Below are positions 3 to 14,135 of a stretch of DNA of 20,000 bases, one piece after another. The DNA is from an uncultured virus (IMG/VR IMGVR_UViG_3300038428_000082). Lineage: Duplodnaviria; Heunggongvirae; Uroviricota; Caudoviricetes. Where the stretch lies: the IMG/VR virus record IMGVR_UViG_3300038428_000082, one strand, 5' to 3'. Position numbers and translations under genes: made by a program. Position 1 is the stretch's first letter. Each line of letters begins with the position of its first letter. Below the pieces are notes generated by a model. It had not been told where the DNA came from and searched no databases. It worked only from the letters and a program-made list of their open reading frames with translations.

Positions 3-73
3 GGGAGACGCTCTACCATTGAGCTACGCCCCGCATGGCGGGGCGACGGGACTCGAACCCGCAACCTTCTCCC
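3..73 (-). ncRNA. Circularly permuted tRNA-like module B (order T arm, closed acceptor stem, D arm; YrlA-like)
   Basis: Minus strand reads GGGAGA AGGTT GCGGG-TTCGAGT-CCCGT CGCCCCGC-CAT-GCGGGGCG TA GCTC-AATGGTA-GAGC G TCTCCC. The ends pair in place of an anticodon stem. May extend past the window edge. Confidence 0.75.
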
Positions 74-193: not shown

Positions 194-268
194 TGGCTCC
201 GAGGGGAGGACTCGAACCTCTCATTAACCGGGTCAGAGCCGGTTCTCCTACCGTTAGAGGACTCTGGA
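194..268 (-). tRNA. trnQ: tRNA-Gln(CUG), imperfect acceptor stem
   Basis: Anticodon arm ACCGG-CT CTG AC-CCGGT, TTCGAGT T loop, G73-CCA. Confidence 0.85.
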
Positions 269-331
269 ATATCTTGCTATTTACGTCAACTTTTAGCCCC
301 AGAGGGGTAAACTTGACGTATAAATCAATCT

Positions 332-410
332 TGGTCGGCGTGGGGAGATTTGAACTCCCGACCCCTCCGCCCCGAACGGAGTGCTCTAAACCGGGCTGAG
401 CTACACACCG
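332..410 (-). tRNA. trnP: tRNA-Pro(CGG)
   Basis: CTCCG-TT CGG GG-CGGAG, C1:G72, A73-CCA. Confidence 0.95.
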
Positions 411-420
411 AAAATTTAAA

Positions 421-1011
421 TCAGACGACCCCGGAATAATCTTTGCTTTTATTTCCCGGAACCCAATCCGCAAATAACCCAAGCTCCCTAACTTTTCGCA
501 TTGTATCAGCGATTAGTAACCACGCTTTGTAGGGCATATTTCCTCGAACAATGTTACATCTTGTGCAACAGGGAATTACGTTACTTTTCAAATGACCCCG
601 CATGTTATCTAATCGGTCCAACCCAATGCGTAGTTCTCTTTGGGTTACTCCACAGTATCGGCAGCCAGTGGATATAAGAGCAGCTACGTAGTTCCGGTCA
701 AGGTCGCAGGCAAACCCATGGCGTTTATCCCAACTCTTGCAGTCGTTTGTAACATGCCTTGCTTCGCCTTTATACCTTTGGGTGCTTAGAGTCTGTTTCC
801 TTCGCTCGTAAACCCCCTCGGTCATTCCATGTCGAGGTTTCCAACGTTTGTTATGCTTATTAAAGCAAATACGGCATAGAAATCGGTAATACTTATTCCC
901 ATTAGACCAACGTGTTGGGAAGTTCTTACCGTCCTCAGTTAATGCCTTCCCACATTTTTTGCAGATGTGTGGAAGTCTTACATTCACTCCACCAACTTCT
1001 TGACTCTTCAT
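421..1011 (-). CDS. HNH-type homing endonuclease inside the tRNA array (start revised to ATG at 1011)
   Basis: CRYC...GLDRLDNMRGHLKSNVIPCCTRCN motif and N-terminal CxxC pairs. The longer ORF start lies inside tRNA-Pro(UGG). Confidence 0.8.
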   Translation of the reverse strand: MKSQEVGGVNVRLPHICKKCGKALTEDGKNFPTRWSNGNKYYRFLCRICFNKHNKRWKPRHGMTEGVYERRKQTLSTQRYKGEARHVTNDCKSWDKRHGFACDLDRNYVAALISTGCRYCGVTQRELRIGLDRLDNMRGHLKSNVIPCCTRCNIVRGNMPYKAWLLIADTMRKVRELGLFADWVPGNKSKDYSGVV

Positions 1012-1030
1012 ACTAATAGATACTGAAGTC
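1012..1030 (-). promoter_or_regulatory. Putative phage-specific promoter GACTTC-N5-CTATTAGT directly before the ATG (leaderless)
   Basis: Same motif and spacing at 3233-3251 (-) and 3626-3644 (+); variants at 14152-14170 and 16513-16531. Confidence 0.65.
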
Positions 1031-1055
1031 AGAAGATTGGTCGGAGTGATATTTT

Positions 1056-1130
1056 TGGTCGGGGCGAGAGGATTTGAACCTCCAACGACTTGCTCCCAAA
1101 GCAAGTGGGTTACCGTTACCCTACGCCCCG
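1056..1130 (-). tRNA. trnP: tRNA-Pro(UGG)
   Basis: CTTGC-TT TGG GA-GCAAG, acceptor CGGGGCG/CGCCCCG, ACCA. Confidence 0.95.
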
Positions 1131-1167
1131 GCACAAGTTAGGCCGTTCAGCTACAGCCCGTAAACTT

Positions 1168-1242
1168 TGGTCAGGTCCGGCAGAGTCGAACTGCCAATCA
1201 CTAGTCCCCCAGACTAGGGCATTACCATTATGCTAGGACCTG
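1168..1242 (-). tRNA. trnP: tRNA-Pro(GGG)
   Basis: CTAGT-CT GGG GG-ACTAG, acceptor CAGGTCC/GGACCTG, ACCA. Confidence 0.95.
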
Positions 1243-1398
1243 ATAATGGAGGTTTGGCAGTACTCCCCCAGCTAATCAGAGCCAGTACTCGTCAACCTCC
1301 AAACGGTGACGGACAATGGGAGGTTTTCACCTCTCGGGCCTCAGCCCACATACTCAAACCGGTTAGCCTTGCCAGTCCAGTATGCTTCCGCCATAACT

Positions 1399-1473
1399 TG
1401 GTAGCTCGCACAGGAATCGAACCTGTGACATCCGCCTTATGAGAGCGGCGTTCTGCCACTGAACTAGCGAGCC
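1399..1473 (-). tRNA. tRNA with CAU anticodon (elongator Met or Ile2)
   Basis: CCGCT-CT CAT AA-GGCGG, paired 1:72, ACCA. Confidence 0.9.
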
Positions 1474-1590
1474 AGAACGTACGTGGTGTTTGGGAGCCAT
1501 GATGGTTGCGCTGCGCCACACCATGAGTATGTTACCCGACAATTACGCCGCCCAAACAATGGCCTTTTAAGGGGCACTCACGTACGGCTT

Positions 1591-1664
1591 GAGTTGCATG
1601 GGTGGAATCGAACCACCGACCTCCCGGTACCCCGGTCGCTCTTCCGCTGAGCTACAAGACAACC
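1591..1664 (-). ncRNA. Anticodon-less tRNA-like element (4-nt loop, no CCA)
   Basis: Intact D arm GCTC-AGCGGAA-GAGC and T arm GGTGG-TTCGATT-CCACC; anticodon arm reduced to CCGG-GGTA-CCGG. Confidence 0.7.
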
Positions 1665-1670
1665 CTAAGA

Positions 1671-1747
1671 TGGTAGCGGGGATGGGAATTGAACCCACCT
1701 TTACAGAGCTTATGAGACTCCGAAACTCACCAGAGTTATACCCCGCA
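1671..1747 (-). tRNA. trnM: tRNA-Met(CAU), initiator-like acceptor (U1.U72 mismatch)
   Basis: TGCGGGG/CCCCGCT-ACCA; GGAGT-CT CAT AA-GCTCT. Confidence 0.85.
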
Positions 1748-1800
1748 TCAAACCATACGCTACACCGCATATCTGTTGCTAATACGCTGTAGCGTATCAA

Positions 1801-1876
1801 GGTTGCGGAGGCTGGATTTGAACCAGCGGCCTGTTGGTTATGAGCCAACCGAGCTACCTGACTGCTCTACTCCGCT
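1801..1876 (-). tRNA. trnM: tRNA-fMet-like (CAU), A1.A72 mismatch, 3' end ACC-T
   Basis: AGCGGAG TA GAGC-AGTCAGGTA-GCTC; GTTGG-CT CAT AA-CCAAC; CTCCGCA ACC. Confidence 0.88.
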
Positions 1877-1882
1877 ATAACT

Positions 1883-1959
1883 TGGTGCCTCCCCAGAGAG
1901 TCGAACTCTGTTCTCCCGCTCTTCAGGCGGGCGCTATGCACCGCATCAGCTAAAGAGGC
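1883..1959 (-). tRNA. trnF: tRNA-Phe(GAA)
   Basis: CCCGC-CT GAA GA-GCGGG, ACCA. Confidence 0.93.
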
Positions 1960-2034
1960 AAAACCAAACTTTCAAACTTCTCGGCATTATCTTGAGAGCA
2001 CCTTAAGTCCTATAATACGCTCTCAAGAGCATCT

Positions 2035-2110
2035 TGGTGGGTCGGGAGGGAATCGAACCCTCAACCTTGGGCTTAAGAGGCCCCTGCTCTGCCAGTTAAG
2101 CTACCGACCC
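2035..2110 (-). tRNA. trnK: tRNA-Lys(CUU)
   Basis: GGGGC-CT CTT AA-GCCCA, GGGTCGG/CCGACCC, ACCA. Confidence 0.95.
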
Positions 2111-2115
2111 AAATT

Positions 2116-2192
2116 TGGTACCGCCGAGAGGACTCGAACCTCCAACTCCTCGGGCAAGAGCCGAGTACTCTGTCCAGTTGAGTTACGGCGGC
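2116..2192 (-). tRNA. tRNA with CUU (Lys) anticodon but G37/C38 and an Arg-like D loop
   Basis: CTCGG-CT CTT GC-CCGAG; D loop AACTGGACA; ACCA. Confidence 0.85.
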
Positions 2193-2198
2193 ACATCT

Positions 2199-2278
2199 TG
2201 GTGGAGCCGGTGGATTGGGTGCCCACGACCGTCCGCTTAAAAGGCGGCTACGCTTAACCACATCTGCGTCACGACTCC
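2199..2278 (-). tRNA. trnK: tRNA-Lys(UUU) with a non-canonical T loop
   Basis: GCCGC-CT TTT AA-GCGGA; T arm GTGGG-CACCCAA-TCCAC; GGAGTCG/CGGCTCC ACCA. Confidence 0.8.
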
Positions 2279-2284
2279 ATATTT

Positions 2285-2359
2285 TGGCTCTGGAGGAGGG
2301 AATCGAACCCCCAACCATTCGGTTAACAGCCGAACGCTCTACCGTTGAGCTACTCCAGA
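2285..2359 (-). tRNA. trnN: tRNA-Asn(GUU)
   Basis: TTCGG-CT GTT AA-CCGAA, U1:A72, G73-CCA. Confidence 0.95.
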
Positions 2360-2524
2360 AGAAACTGTCTCCTTCTCAGGCGGATATATAGACGAGTTGT
2401 TATGACACATCGTCCCTGAGTGCTCGCCTGAACCATACAACGGCTGGTGCTGTTTGCCCTCACAACCTGCCAACCAAGGGCGACCCTCATCACACCAGCG
2501 ACACTCGCTCATACGACCTCAAAC

Positions 2525-2598
2525 TGGCTGGGACGGCAGGACTCGAACCTGCATTCTCCGGGTAACAGCCGGGCATCTTACCATTGGATGACATCCCA
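2525..2598 (-). tRNA. trnN: tRNA-Asn(GUU) with a Gln-like body
   Basis: TGGGATG TC ATC-CAATGGTAA-GAT; CCCGG-CT GTT AC-CCGGA; 4-nt variable loop; GCCA. Confidence 0.88.
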
Positions 2599-2745
2599 AC
2601 AAACAGTGACCAGTGACAACCGCCCTCCGCAGGGGCGGGAAGTGCATAGCTGGGGACCTCGCCTGTTCCGAAGAACTGGTGCCCTGCTTACCACCGAACC
2701 CATCAGACTCGCCATCCCTTTGGGTGCGTCACGTGGTCTCAATCT

Positions 2746-2825
2746 TGGAAGCCCCGAGGGGATTTGAACCCACTGACCTTCGGTTTCGTAGACCGCTGCT
2801 CTAGTCCGGGCTGAGCTACGGGGCC
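2746..2825 (-). tRNA. trnR: tRNA-Arg(ACG)
   Basis: GCGGT-CT ACG AA-ACCGA, TCCA end. Confidence 0.9.
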
Positions 2826-3232
2826 TCAATCTTGTACCAACCTCTTTCTTTCGCTGTTTTACGACGGTGACAGTTGGCGCATCGCACGTCGCACTTAACT
2901 ATCTCAGCCTTTATCGTCTTTAATGATGCCTTCATTTGTGTCATTAAAGTTGAAACGGCTGCTAATTTCTTTTCTCCTTCCCGATGGTCAAACTCAAGGA
3001 CTATCGGGTCAGATTCTCCACAGTCGATACAGGGGTGAGTCATCAAATACTGTAAGACCCACTCTATGGCTTCTTTCCTATACCTTGCACCATTCCGTTT
3101 CGCTTTTTCAACATACGAGGTCTTATTCCTCTCGTAGTTTTGCTTATTGTAGCCTCGCTGGCATTCGAGGCAGTATGGTGCTGACCGGTGCTCTTTTTCC
3201 TTACCACATTTGTAACAGTTCTTAGACCTCAT
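2816..3232 (-). CDS. HNH endonuclease inside the tRNA array
   Basis: PCIDCGESDPIVLEFDH...CDVRCANCHRRKT; stop codon overlaps the 5' end of tRNA-Arg(ACG). Confidence 0.85.
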   Translation of the reverse strand: MRSKNCYKCGKEKEHRSAPYCLECQRGYNKQNYERNKTSYVEKAKRNGARYRKEAIEWVLQYLMTHPCIDCGESDPIVLEFDHREGEKKLAAVSTLMTQMKASLKTIKAEIVKCDVRCANCHRRKTAKERGWYKIEAP

Positions 3233-3271
3233 ACTAAAGGACTACGAAGTCCAATTACTGTTTTCAAATCT

Positions 3272-3347
3272 TGGAACCCCTGACAGGATTCGGACCTGCG
3301 ACCATCCGGGTCGAAACCGGGCGCTCTGTCCACTGAGCTACAGGGGC
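3272..3347 (-). tRNA. trnR: tRNA-Arg(UCG)
   Basis: CCCGG-TT TCG AC-CCGGA, A20, TCCA end. Confidence 0.92.
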
Positions 3348-3353
3348 CTAATC

Positions 3354-3431
3354 TGGAAGTCCCGGTCGGATTTTAACCGACGACCTTCTCCTTCGGAGGG
3401 AGTTGCTCTATACGGGCTGAGCTACGGGACC
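3354..3431 (-). tRNA. trnR: tRNA-Arg(CCG)
   Basis: ACTCC-CT CCG AA-GGAGA, atypical T loop TTAAAAT, TCCA end. Confidence 0.88.
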
Positions 3432-3437
3432 ATATAT

Positions 3438-3509
3438 TGGGGTGAATGACGAAGTGGGCTGCCCCCGCCCCCTCGGACCAGACCGAGTACCCTGTGGGGT
3501 TCACTCACC
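3438..3509 (-). ncRNA. tRNA-His mimic: His acceptor (G-1:C73, CCA) with non-canonical D, anticodon and T loops
   Basis: GGTGAGTG/CATTCACC-CCA; ACCC-CACA-GGGT; CTCGG-TCTGGT-CCGAG (6-nt loop); no TTC motif. Confidence 0.7.
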
Positions 3510-3514
3510 AAACT

Positions 3515-3589
3515 TGGGGTGACTGAGGGGAATCGAACCCCCGTATCCTGATTCACAGTCAGGCACTCTGCCACTGAGTTACAGTCACC
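3515..3589 (-). tRNA. trnH: tRNA-His(GUG), first tRNA of the array
   Basis: G-1, CCTGA-CT GTG AA-TCAGG, C73-CCA. Confidence 0.95.
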
Positions 3590-3644
3590 ATAAACGCAAA
3601 AAACCCACCCAAAAACCCATCTTATGACTTCCACTGTCTTTAAT

Positions 3645-4001
3645 ATGGGACAGTGGATTCATAGAATGCTTTTTGTTAACAAAGAAACTAAAACCGGGCT
3701 TTGTGCCGCCTGTGGAGATGTTAAAGTGCGACTCAAAGGTGGTAAGTATCTTTGCCGTAACTCACAAGCCCGTTGGACTGGAAGGTGTAACTACCCCTCT
3801 CATCCATACCGAGATAAGTCAAACCCCCCGAGAGTCTGCGATGAATGCGGCTTTGTTGCTAAATGCTCGTGCCAGATTGACATCCATCACATTGATGACA
3901 ACCACGCTAACAATCAGCCAGAGAACCTCCGTCCTCTATGCGTATGTTGTCACCGACTCATTCACTGCAAGTGCAAAATAAAAAAGCCCACAGAACCTTG
4001 A
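3645..4001 (+). CDS. HNH endonuclease, antisense to the tRNA operon (start revised to ATG 3645)
   Basis: CDECG...IDIHHIDDNHANNQPENLRPLCVCCHRLIH; preceded by the shared GACTTC-N5-TCTTTAAT motif. Confidence 0.85.
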   Translation: MGQWIHRMLFVNKETKTGLCAACGDVKVRLKGGKYLCRNSQARWTGRCNYPSHPYRDKSNPPRVCDECGFVAKCSCQIDIHHIDDNHANNQPENLRPLCVCCHRLIHCKCKIKKPTEP

Positions 4002-4012
4002 GTTCGGTGGGC
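3980..4012 (-). terminator. Intrinsic terminator (attenuator) upstream of the tRNA array
   Basis: GCCCAC-C-GAAC-TCAAG-GTTC-T-GTGGGC followed by TTTTTTATTTT. Confidence 0.88.
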
Positions 4013-4071
4013 ATCCTTGCACTCTGTTCGCTTTTTCGCTATGCGACTCCTGCGAACGGAAGCCCACCGAA
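4003..4071 (-). promoter_or_regulatory. Antiterminator helix, mutually exclusive with the terminator
   Basis: TTCGGTGGGC (4071-4062) is the exact complement of the terminator 5' arm GCCCACCGAA (4012-4003); inner TCC/GGA and GTTCGC/GCGAAC pairs extend it. Confidence 0.82.
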
Positions 4072-4134
4072 GCTTGGGCGGCTAAAATGCCGCTTAGGCT
4101 GCCACTGCATCGGGTTTGGTTTCCTATTTCGCAT
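4039..4134 (-). CDS. Leader peptide MRNRKPNPMQWQPKRHFSRPSFGGLPFAGVA (31 aa), putative tRNA-sensing attenuator peptide
   Basis: GGAGAG-AC-ATG start, TAG stop 26 nt before the terminator, codons match the downstream anticodons. Below the ORF-track size cutoff. Confidence 0.82.
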   Translation of the reverse strand: MRNRKPNPMQWQPKRHFSRPSFGGLPFAGVA

Positions 4135-4147
4135 GTCTCTCCAAAAC

Positions 4148-4215
4148 TGGTGCCCCTTTCGGGGCGTAAAATGGTAGGGGCTTTCGCCCCCTCAAACTGG
4201 TGGGCCTTTCGGCCC
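4148..4215 (-). repeat. Three tandem GAAA-tetraloop hairpins each followed by ACCA and a U-rich trailer
   Basis: GGGCC-GAAA-GGCCC-ACCA GTTTG; GGGGGC-GAAA-GCCCCT-ACCA TTTT; GCCCC-GAAA-GGGGC-ACCA GTTTT. Confidence 0.85.
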
Positions 4216-4318
4216 GGAATCTTGTGAGGCTGACCGGGTAACAATATCGTCCGGCTCCCCGCCTCAATTTTACCCCTACAAGTATAGGGTCGGTAGTTCG
4301 TTTTCTTCCTTCACTTAC

Positions 4319-4334
4319 ATAATACCACGGTTTT
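4319..4334 (-). promoter_or_regulatory. Putative promoter of the tRNA operon (AAAACCGTGGTATTAT, extended -10-like)
   Basis: Related AAAA-N2-4-RGTATYWT boxes at 11120-11134, 13258-13272 and 18942-18956 (-) and 19351-19365 (+); TGTGGTATACT at 10416-10426. Confidence 0.6.
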
Positions 4335-4579
4335 GGGAGAATATGGGGATTTTTTTAATCGGCCATTTATTTACTGTGAACCTAACTTTAGTTCCCGATA
4401 ACTTGTCTGATTTCCATTGGTTAGCCGTTCAGCCCGTATATCCCCGGTATTACCTCAAGGGCTGTCCAAATACTTCCCACCGGTCAACAAACCCGTCACT
4501 TCCTTTGTAACCCCGGATAAGCCGATTGGAGTTAATGACCGGATTAGAGTAAAGCGGCATCGTGGGAACCATAATGTAT

Positions 4580-5041
4580 TCAGGTTCCCTCCCATGAAAT
4601 TTCCAACCAAGTATGATACATGTTGTAGGGTGTCTCGGAGCCGCATTCGCCGCCGCTGTTCAAATAAGCGGCACTGTCATCATGCTCCACCCACCCTTCT
4701 TTGACCGTGACTTTGTAGCCGTCTCGGCGTAGCTTGGTGATGATTTTCTTTAGCTCGGCAGCGAACTCAAAATTCTTGAAAAACTTCTGTTCCCCGGCAA
4801 GCGGGCGGTCAGTCCAATTCTCCGTGGATAGCCGGTAGTCTTCAATTTTTGTTATGCCGTCTTTTATACGGGCGTCAATACGCCATTGAATGTCTTCGAG
4901 AGTTTTGGCGTAGTACTCTTTCCGCTTTTTCTCTTCCGCAGCCGCCCGCTGAACCTTGCGCTTGGCGGACTCCTCCACTTTCTCCCGAGCAATACGTTCA
5001 GCGTTGGTCTCAGCGAGCGCCCTTGCTTCCGCTGCCCTCAT
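4580..5041 (-). CDS. Hypothetical protein with an N-terminal coiled coil
   Basis: ATG overlaps the stop of the upstream gene (ATGA); charged helical N-terminus. Confidence 0.7.
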   Translation of the reverse strand: MRAAEARALAETNAERIAREKVEESAKRKVQRAAAEEKKRKEYYAKTLEDIQWRIDARIKDGITKIEDYRLSTENWTDRPLAGEQKFFKNFEFAAELKKIITKLRRDGYKVTVKEGWVEHDDSAAYLNSGGECGSETPYNMYHTWLEISWEGT

Positions 5042-5976
5042 AGCCACTTCCTCTCTTTCCAATGTTTCACGATGGCCCCGGCGACGAGCTTGCTGACCTT
5101 ATCCCGGTCACATTCCGGGGGAAGCGGGGTGTTCTTCTCTGCTTCGGGTACTTCATTCCGTAAAACCCCATATAGGTCTAATACTTCTTTTAGACCAAGT
5201 TTTCCGGTGCGAATGTTAAGCAGGAGGGTCTTCTCCGGTCGGGGGAAAGTCATCCTGCCGGTCCGCAAAAGCTCAAGACATTCTTGGATGCCTCGAATCA
5301 TGTGCATAGCCGCTTGGGGGTCGTAGCCGTACTCTTCCTTCTCGGCTTTCCGGGTCCCGTGCTTACCCGTGCCCTCCCCAAGCATCCGGTGGAACTGGTT
5401 ATCCGCCAACCCGATAAAGGCTTTCGCCGCCCGTGCGGACAGGAAGTCATTGGTGTTGGGCAGAATCATGGTGTCCCACACCGTGTTTGTATGCGCCTCC
5501 CGGTTACGCCTCACGCACGTGCTGTCCCGGTAGCCCTCATGGTCGCTTATGCAGCTTGGATACTCACACTGCTGCGCATCATAGGGGCAGGACCAGCGTG
5601 CCTTTGGCTCCAAGGATAGGTCCTTGATGCTGTCCGGGACAAACAGGAAGGAAAGCGCCGAAGGATTGCCCTTAAGCGCCAGACCCGCCCAACGGCGTAG
5701 GGAGTAAGCTTTGATGTCAACGTCCGCCTTGGTGTTCTTGCGCTTGTCTCCTGCCGTGCTAGCGCTCGCATGACCCATTTTACGAGGGTTCTCGTTGTCA
5801 AGTTGGAGTTCTTCTTCCGGGCGACCCACAAACACGCCGGACACATCAAGGTCGGCCTTGTCGTCCATCCGGGCACCATGCTGCCAACTCCCGGAGGCGA
5901 AGGCGAGAATCAGGCTATTGGGGGCAACCTCCCCAATCTCCACCAACGCTTGTTTGAGCTTTCCGTAGAATTCCAT
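5038..5976 (-). CDS. Pol-beta superfamily nucleotidyltransferase, RlaP/YcgL-like
   Basis: GSWQHG...DLD motif, D..YSL......LKGNP..L..LF and HMIR....LEL segments; start coupled by TAATG. Confidence 0.85.
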   Translation of the reverse strand: MEFYGKLKQALVEIGEVAPNSLILAFASGSWQHGARMDDKADLDVSGVFVGRPEEELQLDNENPRKMGHASASTAGDKRKNTKADVDIKAYSLRRWAGLALKGNPSALSFLFVPDSIKDLSLEPKARWSCPYDAQQCEYPSCISDHEGYRDSTCVRRNREAHTNTVWDTMILPNTNDFLSARAAKAFIGLADNQFHRMLGEGTGKHGTRKAEKEEYGYDPQAAMHMIRGIQECLELLRTGRMTFPRPEKTLLLNIRTGKLGLKEVLDLYGVLRNEVPEAEKNTPLPPECDRDKVSKLVAGAIVKHWKERKWL

Positions 5977-6287
5977 TAGAACACCGGTACCTTTGTGATA
6001 TTTTCCTTGGTTTGCTGCGTTGTCTCCACCACCCCGCACCGTCCACAAGTCCTTATCCAACGGGGAATTTCCTGCCGGGGCACATCCGTGGGAAGTTGCC
6101 GGTCAACCCCCATGGTGCCGGGCGGGTCGCCAGCGATATGGTACGCTTCGTGGATGATGGGGTCATACACCGGTTTACTCCACGCATGGCAGCACCGCAA
6201 CTCCGCCTCCGCCAGCCGTATCTTCGCTGATTGAAGTTCGTTCTCCAGCCGGACTACCTCTGCCCTGAACACTTGTACGGGTAGCAT
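5976..6287 (-). CDS. Hypothetical protein (CxH...CxxC)
   Basis: RBS GGGGGAG, coupled to both neighbours. Confidence 0.7.
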   Translation of the reverse strand: MLPVQVFRAEVVRLENELQSAKIRLAEAELRCCHAWSKPVYDPIIHEAYHIAGDPPGTMGVDRQLPTDVPRQEIPRWIRTCGRCGVVETTQQTKENITKVPVF

Positions 6288-11582: not shown

Positions 11583-12503
11583 TTACTTGGGTCCTTTTTC
11601 GTTCATACGATTTATCTCCTCCTTCATAAACCGCAGTTGTTGCAGAGTTTTTTCTGGTATTCCTTTGCATCCAGGATTGATGTTTTTTACCAAAGTTTGA
11701 AAAGCCACTGCCAAGTTTGCTTGGGCGGTCTTGATGATTAAGTACGGCCATATCCTACGAAGAATATCTTCAGCTTTTGAACTCGTCCATATCATCGTAT
11801 AGCAGTCCTTGTGGATTTTCCTTCGCCCTTTTCTTCTAACCGTAGTCGCTCCCCATCTTTTCTCAAGGTAATTTTTGAGGGTTTCTGAAGTATTATAGAC
11901 CCTTATGGATAGACGGTAAGCCTCCCGGCGCTTTGTTTCCCTTTTTACGATTGAAATGGTCCCTTCTCCATCTACGAGGGCAGCGAGATGAGAAGCACTT
12001 TGTACGGGGTCATTAAGGTCTGGAAACTCGTTCCTTTGTATTCCCCAGGTTTCTAGCCACTCTATCTCTTGAGAACTAAGCGGACATGGAGACGGATTTC
12101 CCGGCTTCCAAGGGTGGATATGGTCGGGGAGATTATTAAGTTCTGGGGGCCTCTGTCCGGTGTATACCCATATAGATGTTTGTAGGGCGTTAAGCAGGTT
12201 CCACATAGCTTGTGAAAGATGGGGTTCACTTCTGTCACCCTCTAAATGAGCGGTTATATGCCTTATAGCGCTATCAAGCAAATCCGCAATCTTCATCCCG
12301 TTCTCCCAATTACGGGTGTCTCCATTACCTGTTCCACCTGAGAGAAGGTCTCGTTGTTTGTTACCTATTTCATAGATGCGAGAAACCATCTTAACGGCTG
12401 TCCAGGGCATCCAGTGAAATGCTCCCTTGCCTATACGACTGTCTCGTTGTGCTCCAGTGGAATATATAGTCTCTGCTGTGGCACTTTTTTTGAATTGTTC
12501 CAT
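11583..12503 (-). CDS. dATP/dGTP diphosphohydrolase-like (DUF5664) domain fused to a LAGLIDADG endonuclease domain
   Basis: TGAQRD..GKG.F...P / RNWENG / DSAIRHI..HLEGD..EPHL..A.WN, then HLAALVDGEGTISI...PYLIIK..QA. Confidence 0.82.
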   Translation of the reverse strand: MEQFKKSATAETIYSTGAQRDSRIGKGAFHWMPWTAVKMVSRIYEIGNKQRDLLSGGTGNGDTRNWENGMKIADLLDSAIRHITAHLEGDRSEPHLSQAMWNLLNALQTSIWVYTGQRPPELNNLPDHIHPWKPGNPSPCPLSSQEIEWLETWGIQRNEFPDLNDPVQSASHLAALVDGEGTISIVKRETKRREAYRLSIRVYNTSETLKNYLEKRWGATTVRRKGRRKIHKDCYTMIWTSSKAEDILRRIWPYLIIKTAQANLAVAFQTLVKNINPGCKGIPEKTLQQLRFMKEEINRMNEKGPK

Positions 12504-13286: not shown

Positions 13287-14135
13287 TCATATTTGACAAT
13301 GTTGGCATCTTAAAACTGAAATTCCTCGATTTATATGCCAACGTTGATGGTTTCCTAAGTTACTTTTACCTAGGTTCTTTGAAGCTTCCAAATGTTTAGG
13401 AGTTAAAAGGTATGGTCTTTTTATCCTTTTTGGCATTAATATACGGATGGGCATCACAGGTTTAATGCCTTGTTCTTTCTCTCTTTTGCGTCTAAGGAGT
13501 TGTGCATTTGACCTATTAGTATAACATTGTGGGGATTGAATAGCTCTACGAAGACTTTTTAACCTTTTTATTTCACTTTCTTCGTTTTTTGGTTGTTTAG
13601 AATAACACAAATGTGAACAGTATATTTTTTCTTTCCTTCCAAATGAAACAGAAAATGATTTACCACACACCGGACAGACCTTGTTTATCTTTGGTCTACT
13701 ATTTAATTTCTTGGTTTCACTAATTTTTATATTAGAAAGTCTTTTAGTTTCAGAATTTCTAGGGTCTCTGTGCCAAGCCATTTTCATTTTGCTTTGATTT
13801 TGCTTCCATTCCTCAGAATGCGGCCCTGTAAATCCCTCTCCTCCCCGGCATATGTTGTACCCACACTCAGGGTCCTGCGACCGCAGGAACTTAATAAAGT
13901 CTCTTTCGGTCTGGTCAAGCTCTGTTTTATTCTGGATATCGGAACGTAGGGCGTAAATAGACCAGAGAGAAGACTGTGGATATTTTCTCATTGCATTGAA
14001 AAGGTGAGAACTTCCATTGTGCTGATGCCGAGCAGCGGATAACTTGGTTTGAAGATACTTTCTAAGATTGTTTCCCTTATGCTGACCGACATAATATTTG
14101 CCGGTCTTATGATTAACGATAAGATAAATGAACAT
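13287..14135 (-). CDS. GIY-YIG homing endonuclease
   Basis: FIYLIVN..TGKYYVGQ...E..FI......GYNI..GGEG; AT-rich; basic C-terminal DNA-binding region. Confidence 0.9.
   Translation of the reverse strand: MFIYLIVNHKTGKYYVGQHKGNNLRKYLQTKLSAARHQHNGSSHLFNAMRKYPQSSLWSIYALRSDIQNKTELDQTERDFIKFLRSQDPECGYNICRGGEGFTGPHSEEWKQNQSKMKMAWHRDPRNSETKRLSNIKISETKKLNSRPKINKVCPVCGKSFSVSFGRKEKIYCSHLCYSKQPKNEESEIKRLKSLRRAIQSPQCYTNRSNAQLLRRKREKEQGIKPVMPIRILMPKRIKRPYLLTPKHLEASKNLGKSNLGNHQRWHINRGISVLRCQHCQI

Follow-up and report, generated by a model that had tools for sequence, protein, structure and literature searches.

A probable leader-peptide transcription attenuator ahead of a phage tRNA array, one of four codon-matched leaders in a jumbo phage

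In enterobacteria, the trp, his, leu, thr, ilvGMEDA and pheA operons are attenuated through leaders, those of thr and ilv being multivalent, and the aminoacyl-tRNA synthetase operon pheST of Escherichia coli has an attenuator with the pheM leader. The N/nut (boxB) antitermination of phage lambda uses leader hairpins upstream of a terminator. We know of no control which measures the need for a particular transfer RNA (tRNA) and answers by making that tRNA, and no account of attenuation of a tRNA gene or of a phage tRNA array was found in the literature searched, which covers little subscription-journal or older work. The principle of leader-peptide attenuation in amino-acid operons is set out in the available part of PMC1183508, and the available sections of PMC11464382 and PMC11555353 present phage tRNAs as a counter-defence against tRNA-cleaving immunity. 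The subject of this report is a short leader on the minus strand of a 20,000-nucleotide stretch (the window) of the uncultured virus IMG/VR IMGVR_UViG_3300038428_000082 (Caudoviricetes). This leader lies upstream of a tRNA array and is probably a ribosome-mediated, leader-peptide transcription attenuator that gates the array, one of four in a jumbo phage.

The window is part of a jumbo phage genome and corresponds, in reverse complement, to bases 53,429-73,428 of a 99,272-bp virus record that has a guanine-cytosine (GC) content of 50.6% and a CheckV completeness of 53%. Two haplotypes are present in public viral and metagenome collections, one of which is the window sequence exactly. The second, with 93.9% identity over 377 aligned bases of the leader region, is carried by contigs of 237,553 and 316,945 bp, the longer of which is 99% complete and is referred to here as the relative. 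The analysis was made in silico on open reading frames (ORFs), codon-anticodon match, terminators, pairings that depend on ribosome position and conservation in the two haplotypes. The parts of the leader unit in the window are as follows.

4319-4327, minus strand: extended -10-like promoter motif TGgTATTAT, putative, from a consensus match only
4135-4312, minus strand: structured 5' untranslated leader of 178 nt, from sequence and folding
4215-4202, 4190-4177 and 4165-4152, minus strand: three tandem GAAA hairpins with 5-bp GC stems, -10.0 kcal/mol each
4139-4142, minus strand: Shine-Dalgarno (SD)-like GGAG, 4 nt before the ATG
4039-4134, minus strand: leader ORF (MRNRKPNPMQWQPKRHFSRPSFGGLPFAGVA) of 31 sense codons and TAG, with the ATG at 4134 and the TAG at 4041-4039
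4075-4131, minus strand: sensor block, codons 2-20, with at least one cognate codon for each of 16 anticodon classes
4078-4093, minus strand: small hairpin in the sensor block (GCGGC, 6-nt loop, GCCGC), -8.6 kcal/mol
4062-4079, minus strand: segment 1:2 hairpin (anti-antiterminator), -6.9 kcal/mol
4026-4057, minus strand: hairpin with the stop codon in its loop, -11.2 kcal/mol
4001-4073, minus strand: antiterminator fold, segment 2 with the terminator 5' arm around the stop-codon hairpin, composite -34.8 kcal/mol
3975-4012, minus strand: intrinsic terminator, hairpin 4012-3986 followed by T6-A-T4 at 3985-3975, -15.5 kcal/mol

An earlier note, made from the window's letters alone, had read a 31-codon ORF with a ribosome-binding site at 4134-4039; its ATG, TAG and GGAG were all found, and the duplex of this GGAG with the anti-SD sequence was calculated at -6.4 kcal/mol, against a random-site median of -3.2. 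The note had also held that the codons sample the tRNAs of the array. All 13 anticodon classes present in the window do have a cognate codon within codons 1-19. Of the first 20 codons, 18 specify the eight amino acids of the window's tRNAs, the exceptions being tryptophan and serine. Its account of how synonymous codons are sampled agreed in every detail except proline, which has four codons of three kinds and not three. The note had left three codons unmatched and asked whether their tRNAs lie beyond base 1 of the window. This is so for tRNA-Trp(CCA) and tRNA-Arg(CCU), which follow further along the same array together with tRNA-Arg(UCU), and not for tRNA-Ser(GCU), which belongs to a different array (A1, below). 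When the whole array of the window's own genome is considered, 16 of 16 anticodon classes have a cognate codon in the leader, and 21 of its 30 codons can be decoded by the array.

The relative has 62 tRNA matches in four separate arrays, A1 to A4, and A2 is the array of the window. Every array is preceded by the same module, consisting of an ATG-initiated ORF 24-33 codons long, a hairpin whose loop contains the stop codon (an equivalent was found in all four leaders) and a GC-rich hairpin followed by a T run. Both of the leaders examined in the window's own genome are likewise ATG ORFs within 24-33 codons. Decodability was counted with standard wobble rules, as listed here for the relative.

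A1, tRNAs for Tyr, Leu and Ser: leader peptide MKNLSSNSLSSLSYSSSLLSGLVLPDGWDG; own-array codons 18/29; other-array codons 0-6; anticodon classes 9/9
A2, tRNAs for His, Arg, Asn, Lys, Phe, Met, Pro, Gln(CUG) and Trp: leader peptide MRNRKPNPMQWQPKRHFSRPSFGGLPFAP; own-array codons 22/28; other-array codons 0-6; anticodon classes 16/16
A3, tRNAs for Val, Gly, Ala, Asp, Glu and Cys: leader peptide MNMKTAITNPVDLIEAVAAVCEGGDTSPSGGLG; own-array codons 17/32; other-array codons 0-6; anticodon classes 12/12
A4, tRNAs for Ile, Thr and Gln(UUG): leader peptide MLTITMPHTQTQTTISSGGGACLA; own-array codons 10/23; other-array codons 0-6; anticodon classes 5/5

The fraction of codons read by the leader's own array was 0.43-0.79, and that read by any other array 0-0.26; in total, coverage extended to 42 of 42 anticodon classes. 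The co-variation of leader codons with anticodon content, which the earlier note had proposed to follow among related phages, was thus observed inside one genome. The glutamine codons are an internal control of this matching: the A2 leader, whose array has only tRNA-Gln(CUG), uses CAG twice, and the A4 leader, whose array has tRNA-Gln(UUG), uses CAA twice. The A1 leader of the window's own genome has codons for 8 of 8 classes.

When leaders and arrays were permuted, the true pairing was the best of 24, with 42 classes against at most 34. Among 800 control ORFs of 20-40 codons taken from the 99-kb genome, full coverage was reached by 4 for A1 (one of which is the A1 leader), by 1 for A2 (the leader itself, with its 16 classes), by none for A3 and by 32 for A4; the observed own-codon fraction was reached by 0 of 800 for A1, A2 and A4. 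Counts of own-array codons in the two shifted frames were 4 and 4 for A1, 7 and 7 for A2, 7 and 10 for A3, and 2 and 1 for A4. With uniform random codons, the probability of full coverage was 9.4e-3 for A1, 2.1e-5 for A2, 3.3e-3 for A3 and 4.2e-2 for A4, the product of the four being about 3e-11; the coverage is beyond chance. With codons drawn only from the set of the leader's own array, these probabilities were 0.36, 0.016, 0.064 and 0.60, respectively. The evenness of coverage beyond this own-set expectation points to selection for one codon of each class.

The RNA pairings expected of an attenuator accompany this ORF. Segment 2 (4071-4062) is formed by codons 22-25 of the leader ORF, and its sequence, TTCGGTGGGC, is perfectly complementary to GCCCACCGAA (4012-4003), the 5' arm of the terminator, which begins 26 nt past the leader stop codon; the perfect pairing described by the earlier note was recovered, with 10 bp, as was its U-tailed terminator. 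The competing hairpin that it had described also folds, at 4079-4062, where segment 2 closes with 4079-4075. In the window, the terminator state and the antiterminator state are nearly isoenergetic. The small hairpin of the sensor block appears in every minimum-energy fold, and a pause or timing role is possible for it.

In the relative, the terminators of A1 and A3 are near-identical, with the same 6-bp stem and loops that are one base apart, and that of A4 uses the same stem inverted. These shared stems suggest that an attenuator cassette has been copied and given a new sensor block.

The position of the terminators bears on how the arrays could be transcribed. The distance from the end of the T run to the first tRNA is 5 nt in A1, 9 nt in A2 and 18 nt in A3 of the relative, which leaves no space for a downstream promoter, so that these three arrays can be reached through the terminator only. 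In A4, a gene of about 120 residues with a borderline DUF6915 match lies between the terminator and the tRNAs. A -10-type motif is common to all four leaders, and its strict form has 3 matches in 317 kb, all at arrays. A looser form, YRGTATWATRTR, has 8 matches in the 317-kb relative against 0 for a reversed control; five of the YRGTATWATRTR sites stand before array leaders (A3 has two), one before a transfer-messenger RNA (tmRNA) gene and two before protein genes. This phage tmRNA (Rfam, 124.4 bits) begins about 10 nt after the -10-type motif, without a leader ORF. A 1,353-nt metatranscriptome contig of the second haplotype joins the leader, the terminator and the tRNA-His and tRNA-Arg genes across the site that carries an HNH insertion in the window, which is a weak hint of co-transcription, as DNA carry-over is possible. 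Contigs of this library leave window positions 4267-5370, 3610-4054 and those below 3267 uncovered, and the gap was not used as evidence.

Taken together, these features suggest the following mechanism. Transcription would start at a phage promoter common to stable-RNA genes and cross the structured leader into an ORF of about 30 codons. The first two thirds of this ORF would act as the sensor block, with at least one codon for every anticodon species of the array behind it, and the last third overlaps segment 2, which would be able to pair with the terminator 5' arm before the first tRNA. With fast reading, a ribosome at the tail or at the stop codon would cover segment 2 and open the stop-codon hairpin, so that the terminator forms and the array stays off. 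On a slow codon, for which the tRNA is scarce, uncharged or cleaved, the ribosome would lag, segment 2 would pair with the 5' arm, and polymerase would read through. We infer that the ORF is translated and that stalling turns the switch to read-through in vivo; the natural trigger would be tRNA loss by defence nucleases rather than another shortage. Possible causes of tRNA loss include host shut-off, an anticodon-nuclease defence and codon-usage mismatch. As the products of the array read the sensor codons, the arrangement would amount to negative feedback holding each tRNA set at sufficiency. It is somewhat probable that the whole phage has a four-channel, demand-driven supply, in which about 62 tRNA genes in four arrays are each gated by their own leader peptide, the loss of any tRNA species induces only the array that replaces it, and the array is switched off by its own tRNAs.

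The leaders were folded with ribosomes masked at successive positions. At equilibrium, A1 behaves as a textbook attenuator in the model: the probability of the terminator was about 0 when the ribosome was absent or had its A site at codons 2-15, and 0.8-0.98 when the A site lay at codons 17-29. Because equilibrium masks switched cleanly for A1 only, a second model was added, in which partition-function folds stopped at the terminator loop, ahead of synthesis of the 3' arm, and the ribosome was masked. In these truncated folds, the 5' arm was sequestered upstream with a probability of 0.75-0.99 when the ribosome was absent or in the sensor block (0.75 for A2 of the window without a ribosome). 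Sequestration fell once the A site was on the tail codons, to 0.08-0.28 in A2 of the relative, 0.33-0.55 in A2 of the window (at most tail codons), 0.31-0.55 in A4, 0.50-0.60 in A3 and 0.66 in A1. Dinucleotide shuffles equalled the drop in 3, 0, 0, 0, 2 and 0 of 100 cases for the six leaders, the drop of A2 in the window being matched by none of its 100. The segment 1:2 hairpin is clear in A2 and A3 and not evident in A1 and A4. The predicted direction is that a stall in the sensor block gives read-through and a smooth run to the stop codon gives termination. Since the antiterminator forms in the models without a ribosome, termination appears to need translation, and untranslated leaders may read through.

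The comparison of the two haplotypes bears on the same elements. In the A2 leader, four of four substitutions within codons 1-28 are synonymous and at the third position, and the window sequence is replaced from codon 29 onward relative to the second haplotype. The replaced tail still keeps a stop-codon hairpin (7 bp in the second haplotype) and a terminator, and the pairing of segment 2 with the terminator 5' arm (2:3) has 10 bp in the window and 8 bp in the relative. Around the A1 leader both flanks are replaced; the ORF differs by in-frame insertions or deletions only, of 9 and 3 nt, and the terminator differs in its loop only. In A4, the ORF is identical in both haplotypes, and the terminator has changed its loop but retained its stem. 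This pattern resembles that of a translated, structured module under purifying selection. Upstream of the ORF, the 5' leader of A2 contains a hairpin at 4290-4272, a stem-loop at 4265-4226 and the three GAAA-tetraloop hairpins, which are 25-nt units (4143-4215), each with ACCA and a short T run after it. The triple hairpin occurs once in the 99-kb genome. Hairpin 1 of the second haplotype has a compensatory G-C to C-G swap, and its loop has changed from GAAA to GCAA, which is still a GNRA loop. These ACCA-tailed hairpins resemble acceptor-stem minihelices or boxB-like protein-binding sites.

Several observations weigh against attenuation as the reading of these leaders. At equilibrium, the terminators of A2 and A3 were favoured at almost every ribosome position, so that the switch must act kinetically, during transcription; in the trp leader the terminator is also favoured at equilibrium, and that leader acts kinetically. 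Each tRNA class is represented mostly by one to four codons, without a run, which would suit a response to severe tRNA loss and not to mild starvation. The anti-SD pairing of the A1, A3 and A4 leaders (-2.8 to -3.8 kcal/mol) is random-like. A simple promoter and terminator scan listed neither the -10-like motif nor the terminator hairpin, and it is the missed terminator that counts here. A promoter downstream of the terminator, which the earlier note had named among the things that would refute its reading, has no space in A1-A3 of the relative, but is possible in the window because 386 nt separate the terminator from tRNA-His. Support from covariation is thin, since only two haplotypes exist. 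On balance, the four matched leaders, their terminators and the alternative pairings, which are sensitive to the ribosome in the models, support the attenuator interpretation of the earlier note.

Among the other explanations, an unlikely one keeps the codon sensor and gives it a different effector, such as Rho-dependent polarity, RNase access or transcript processing. Codon matching shows that in-frame reading matters and is silent on how it acts, the equilibrium folds of A2 and A3 would fit an effector other than the terminator, and a candidate ORF in the Xanthomonas phage XacN1 (below) matches tRNAs without a clear T-run terminator. Against this, all four leaders have a GC-rich hairpin, a T run and a complementary segment in the ORF tail, beyond what shuffles give. 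The mini-ORFs might also encode functional small peptides, with the terminators as ordinary boundaries and the match in composition as a by-product. Some arginine-rich peptides bind GNRA-type loops, and the A2 peptide, which is basic, contains tryptophan and sits after three GNRA hairpins, bears a loose likeness to such a pair. The four peptides, however, have no common sequence, and their composition follows the array down to the use of CAG or CAA; as a protein function predicts neither the choice among synonymous codons nor the coverage of every anticodon class, we regard this explanation as very unlikely.

Sensing might proceed without a ribosome, if tRNAs paired directly with the leader triplets in the manner of a multi-specifier T-box, and the three ACCA-tailed hairpins of the A2 leader would be in keeping with this. 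No leader-family match was found by Rfam in window positions 3600-4400 up to E 1, or in the other three leader regions up to E 0.5, T-box RF00230 being likewise unmatched; the leader families compared were Trp_leader, His_leader, Leu_leader, Thr_leader and Phe_leader. Since, moreover, the triplets stand in one frame from ATG to stop, with the stop in a hairpin loop, and haplotype insertions and deletions preserve the frame, direct pairing is highly improbable. Processive antitermination, in which a phage factor bound to the GNRA hairpins would let RNA polymerase run past the terminator, leaving the ORF a secondary role, is given the same slight chance. A compensatory change in these hairpins does leave stem and GNRA loop intact, and the 99-kb genome has no other copy of them, but the hairpins occur in the A2 leader only; the 5' regions of the other leaders are unrelated, and the design of ORF, terminator and antiterminator is alike in all. 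Such antitermination could be added to an attenuator, and it leaves codon matching unexplained. Short ORFs are everywhere and three of the leaders have weak ribosome-binding sites, but chance ORFs beside ordinary terminators are scarcely credible in view of the coverage product of about 3e-11, with which the frame and permutation controls agree.

The tRNA array for which the attenuator is proposed, and the insertion that separates the two in the window, consist of the following.

194-3588, minus strand: gated tRNA array within the window, from ARAGORN and Rfam
3624-4001, plus strand: HNH homing-endonuclease-like ORF (phrog_7545, E 4.3e-5; Pfam HNH_3, 19.5 bits, below cut-off)
3589-3611, minus strand: remnant of the ancestral terminator, 3' arm and T run, abutting tRNA-His

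Within the window, the array has tRNAs for His, Arg (three), Asn (two), Lys (three), Phe, Met (three), Pro (three) and Gln. ARAGORN found 16 tRNAs and Rfam 2 more. Twelve of the 13 anticodon classes counted by the earlier note were recovered by ARAGORN, and the thirteenth by Rfam only, as a tRNA-Lys(UUU) with an encoded CCA at 2202-2278 (minus strand, 35.8 bits) whose anticodon loop was read by eye. The other gene that ARAGORN did not report, at 1594-1661 (minus strand, Rfam 32.8 bits), is tRNA-like with an aberrant anticodon arm and may be degenerate. Positions 6-70 (minus strand) gave a weak match to YrlA, a Y RNA-like family (41.4 bits against a cut-off of 69); the stretch contains the 3' half of a tRNA with CCA and then a 5' half of the same acceptor stem, and would be a permuted tRNA-like element.

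The HNH-like ORF is inserted between the terminator and tRNA-His, on the strand opposite to the array. The order of promoter, leader and first tRNA given by the earlier note holds, with the terminator split from the array by this gene. Window positions 4051-3610 occupy the place of 53 nt in the second haplotype, and this replaced stretch holds the HNH-like ORF and a diverged copy of the terminator. The remnant at 3589-3611 corresponds to the 3' half of the terminator in the second haplotype, where the T run ends 9 nt before tRNA-His. In the window strain, a further HNH gene lies between the promoter and 5' leader of A1 and the A1 leader ORF, at about 49,000-49,811 of the 99-kb genome. The TGA of this gene overlaps the ATG of the A1 leader (ATGA), so that translation of the leader may be coupled to it. 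Other HNH or homing-endonuclease-like ORFs in or near the array of the window are located at 2816-3232, 421-1134, 13287-14135 and 11583-12503 (all minus strand), the last being fused to the N-terminal domain of a dATP/dGTP diphosphohydrolase (PF18909).

The phage was found recurrently in peat and wetland metagenomes. None of the sequenced phages is close to it, and megablast of the leader region against 50,697 phage records gave no match. Searches with the hairpin pattern (in metagenome contigs), the peptide pattern and the promoter 18-mer returned the same two haplotypes and no third, the last of these also giving 2 unrelated AT-rich chance matches among 10. Upstream of the leader, at 5038-6060 (minus strand), lies a nucleotidyltransferase of the RlaP (RNA repair pathway) type, matching PF10127 and phrog_388. 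All tblastn matches to it were below 60% identity, at about 25-30% among the matches listed, and its relatives among sequenced phages at that identity are from actinobacteriophages and from Aeromonas and Bacillus phages. The RlaP-like gene, the weak YrlA-like match and the dATP/dGTP diphosphohydrolase domain prompted a search for RtcB, Ro/TROVE and PurA/PurZ-like genes in the window's genome and the relative, and none was found.

Four cultured phages were screened for codon-matched leaders with nested-ATG ORFs, a procedure which recovers A1, A2 and A4 but not A3 at p<1e-3; a block-wise version missed its own positive controls, and a longest-ORF version missed most of them. In Xanthomonas phage XacN1 (AP018399.1), an unannotated ORF of 41 codons at 46,104-46,229 (plus strand) is flanked by tRNA-Asn and tRNA-Phe. 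The seven tRNAs that follow it (Phe, Asp, Ile, Ala, Val, His and Ser) read 25 of its 40 post-start codons (binomial p 1e-7 in about 1,000 tests), and it is followed by a hairpin without an evident T-run terminator. For T5 and KVP40, the tRNA regions screened contained only weak candidates, at p 1.6e-4 to 2.4e-4 over about 500-600 tests, and one 8.5-kb tRNA region screened in Atu_ph07 gave no candidate; these were not counted either way. As the XacN1 candidate illustrates, codon-matched leaders may be common among phages with tRNA arrays.

If the attenuator reading is true, these leaders would be the first cis-acting control by supply and demand to be described for tRNA genes, with the logic of classical attenuation applied to the decoding machinery and multiplexed over up to 16 anticodon species. 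It would explain why large phages have discrete tRNA blocks, and it would provide a sequence-level read-out of the tRNAs that a phage expects to lose in infection. It would also supply synthetic biology with compact natural sensors of the availability of single tRNAs. Lastly, it would form a link between tRNA-cleaving defences and the phage tRNAs that rescue from them, as presented in the available sections of PMC11464382 and PMC11555353. Those sections supply a reason for replacing tRNAs on demand, and they treat tRNA function, not cis-regulation (PMC11464382, PMC11555353).

In comparison with known systems, lambda N/nut shares with this phage the GNRA-type hairpins upstream of a terminator, in A2 only; codon content is irrelevant to N/nut, no N-like protein was identified in the phage, and the hairpins are absent from the other leaders. 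T-box riboswitches (RF00230) also sense tRNA status through competition between terminator and antiterminator, but one uncharged tRNA is bound directly by the specifier loop and the T-box bulge, whereas the triplets of the phage leaders form a translatable frame. The pheST operon with pheM is similar in placing a component of the translation apparatus under leader-peptide attenuation, and differs in having a single amino acid, a protein output and a response to the charging of one tRNA rather than to the presence of a whole set. The attenuators of amino-acid operons have the same architecture as the phage leaders, with a leader ORF whose codons are linked to the product, a terminator and a mutually exclusive antiterminator that starts at the end of the ORF, and the phage leaders mix codons of several amino acids as those of thr and ilv do. 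Unlike the leaders of these operons, those of the phage would regulate tRNAs and not biosynthetic enzymes. Instead of runs for one to three amino acids, the phage sensors have a few codons each for 5-16 anticodon species, spanning up to nine amino acids, with synonymous codons that match isoacceptors. They are viral, number four per genome with partitioned content and match no leader in Rfam; the element works like the Rfam attenuator leaders and is not their homologue. What is new here is the regulated product, the tRNAs, together with the multiplexing over isoacceptors and the four channels, the control principle itself being known.

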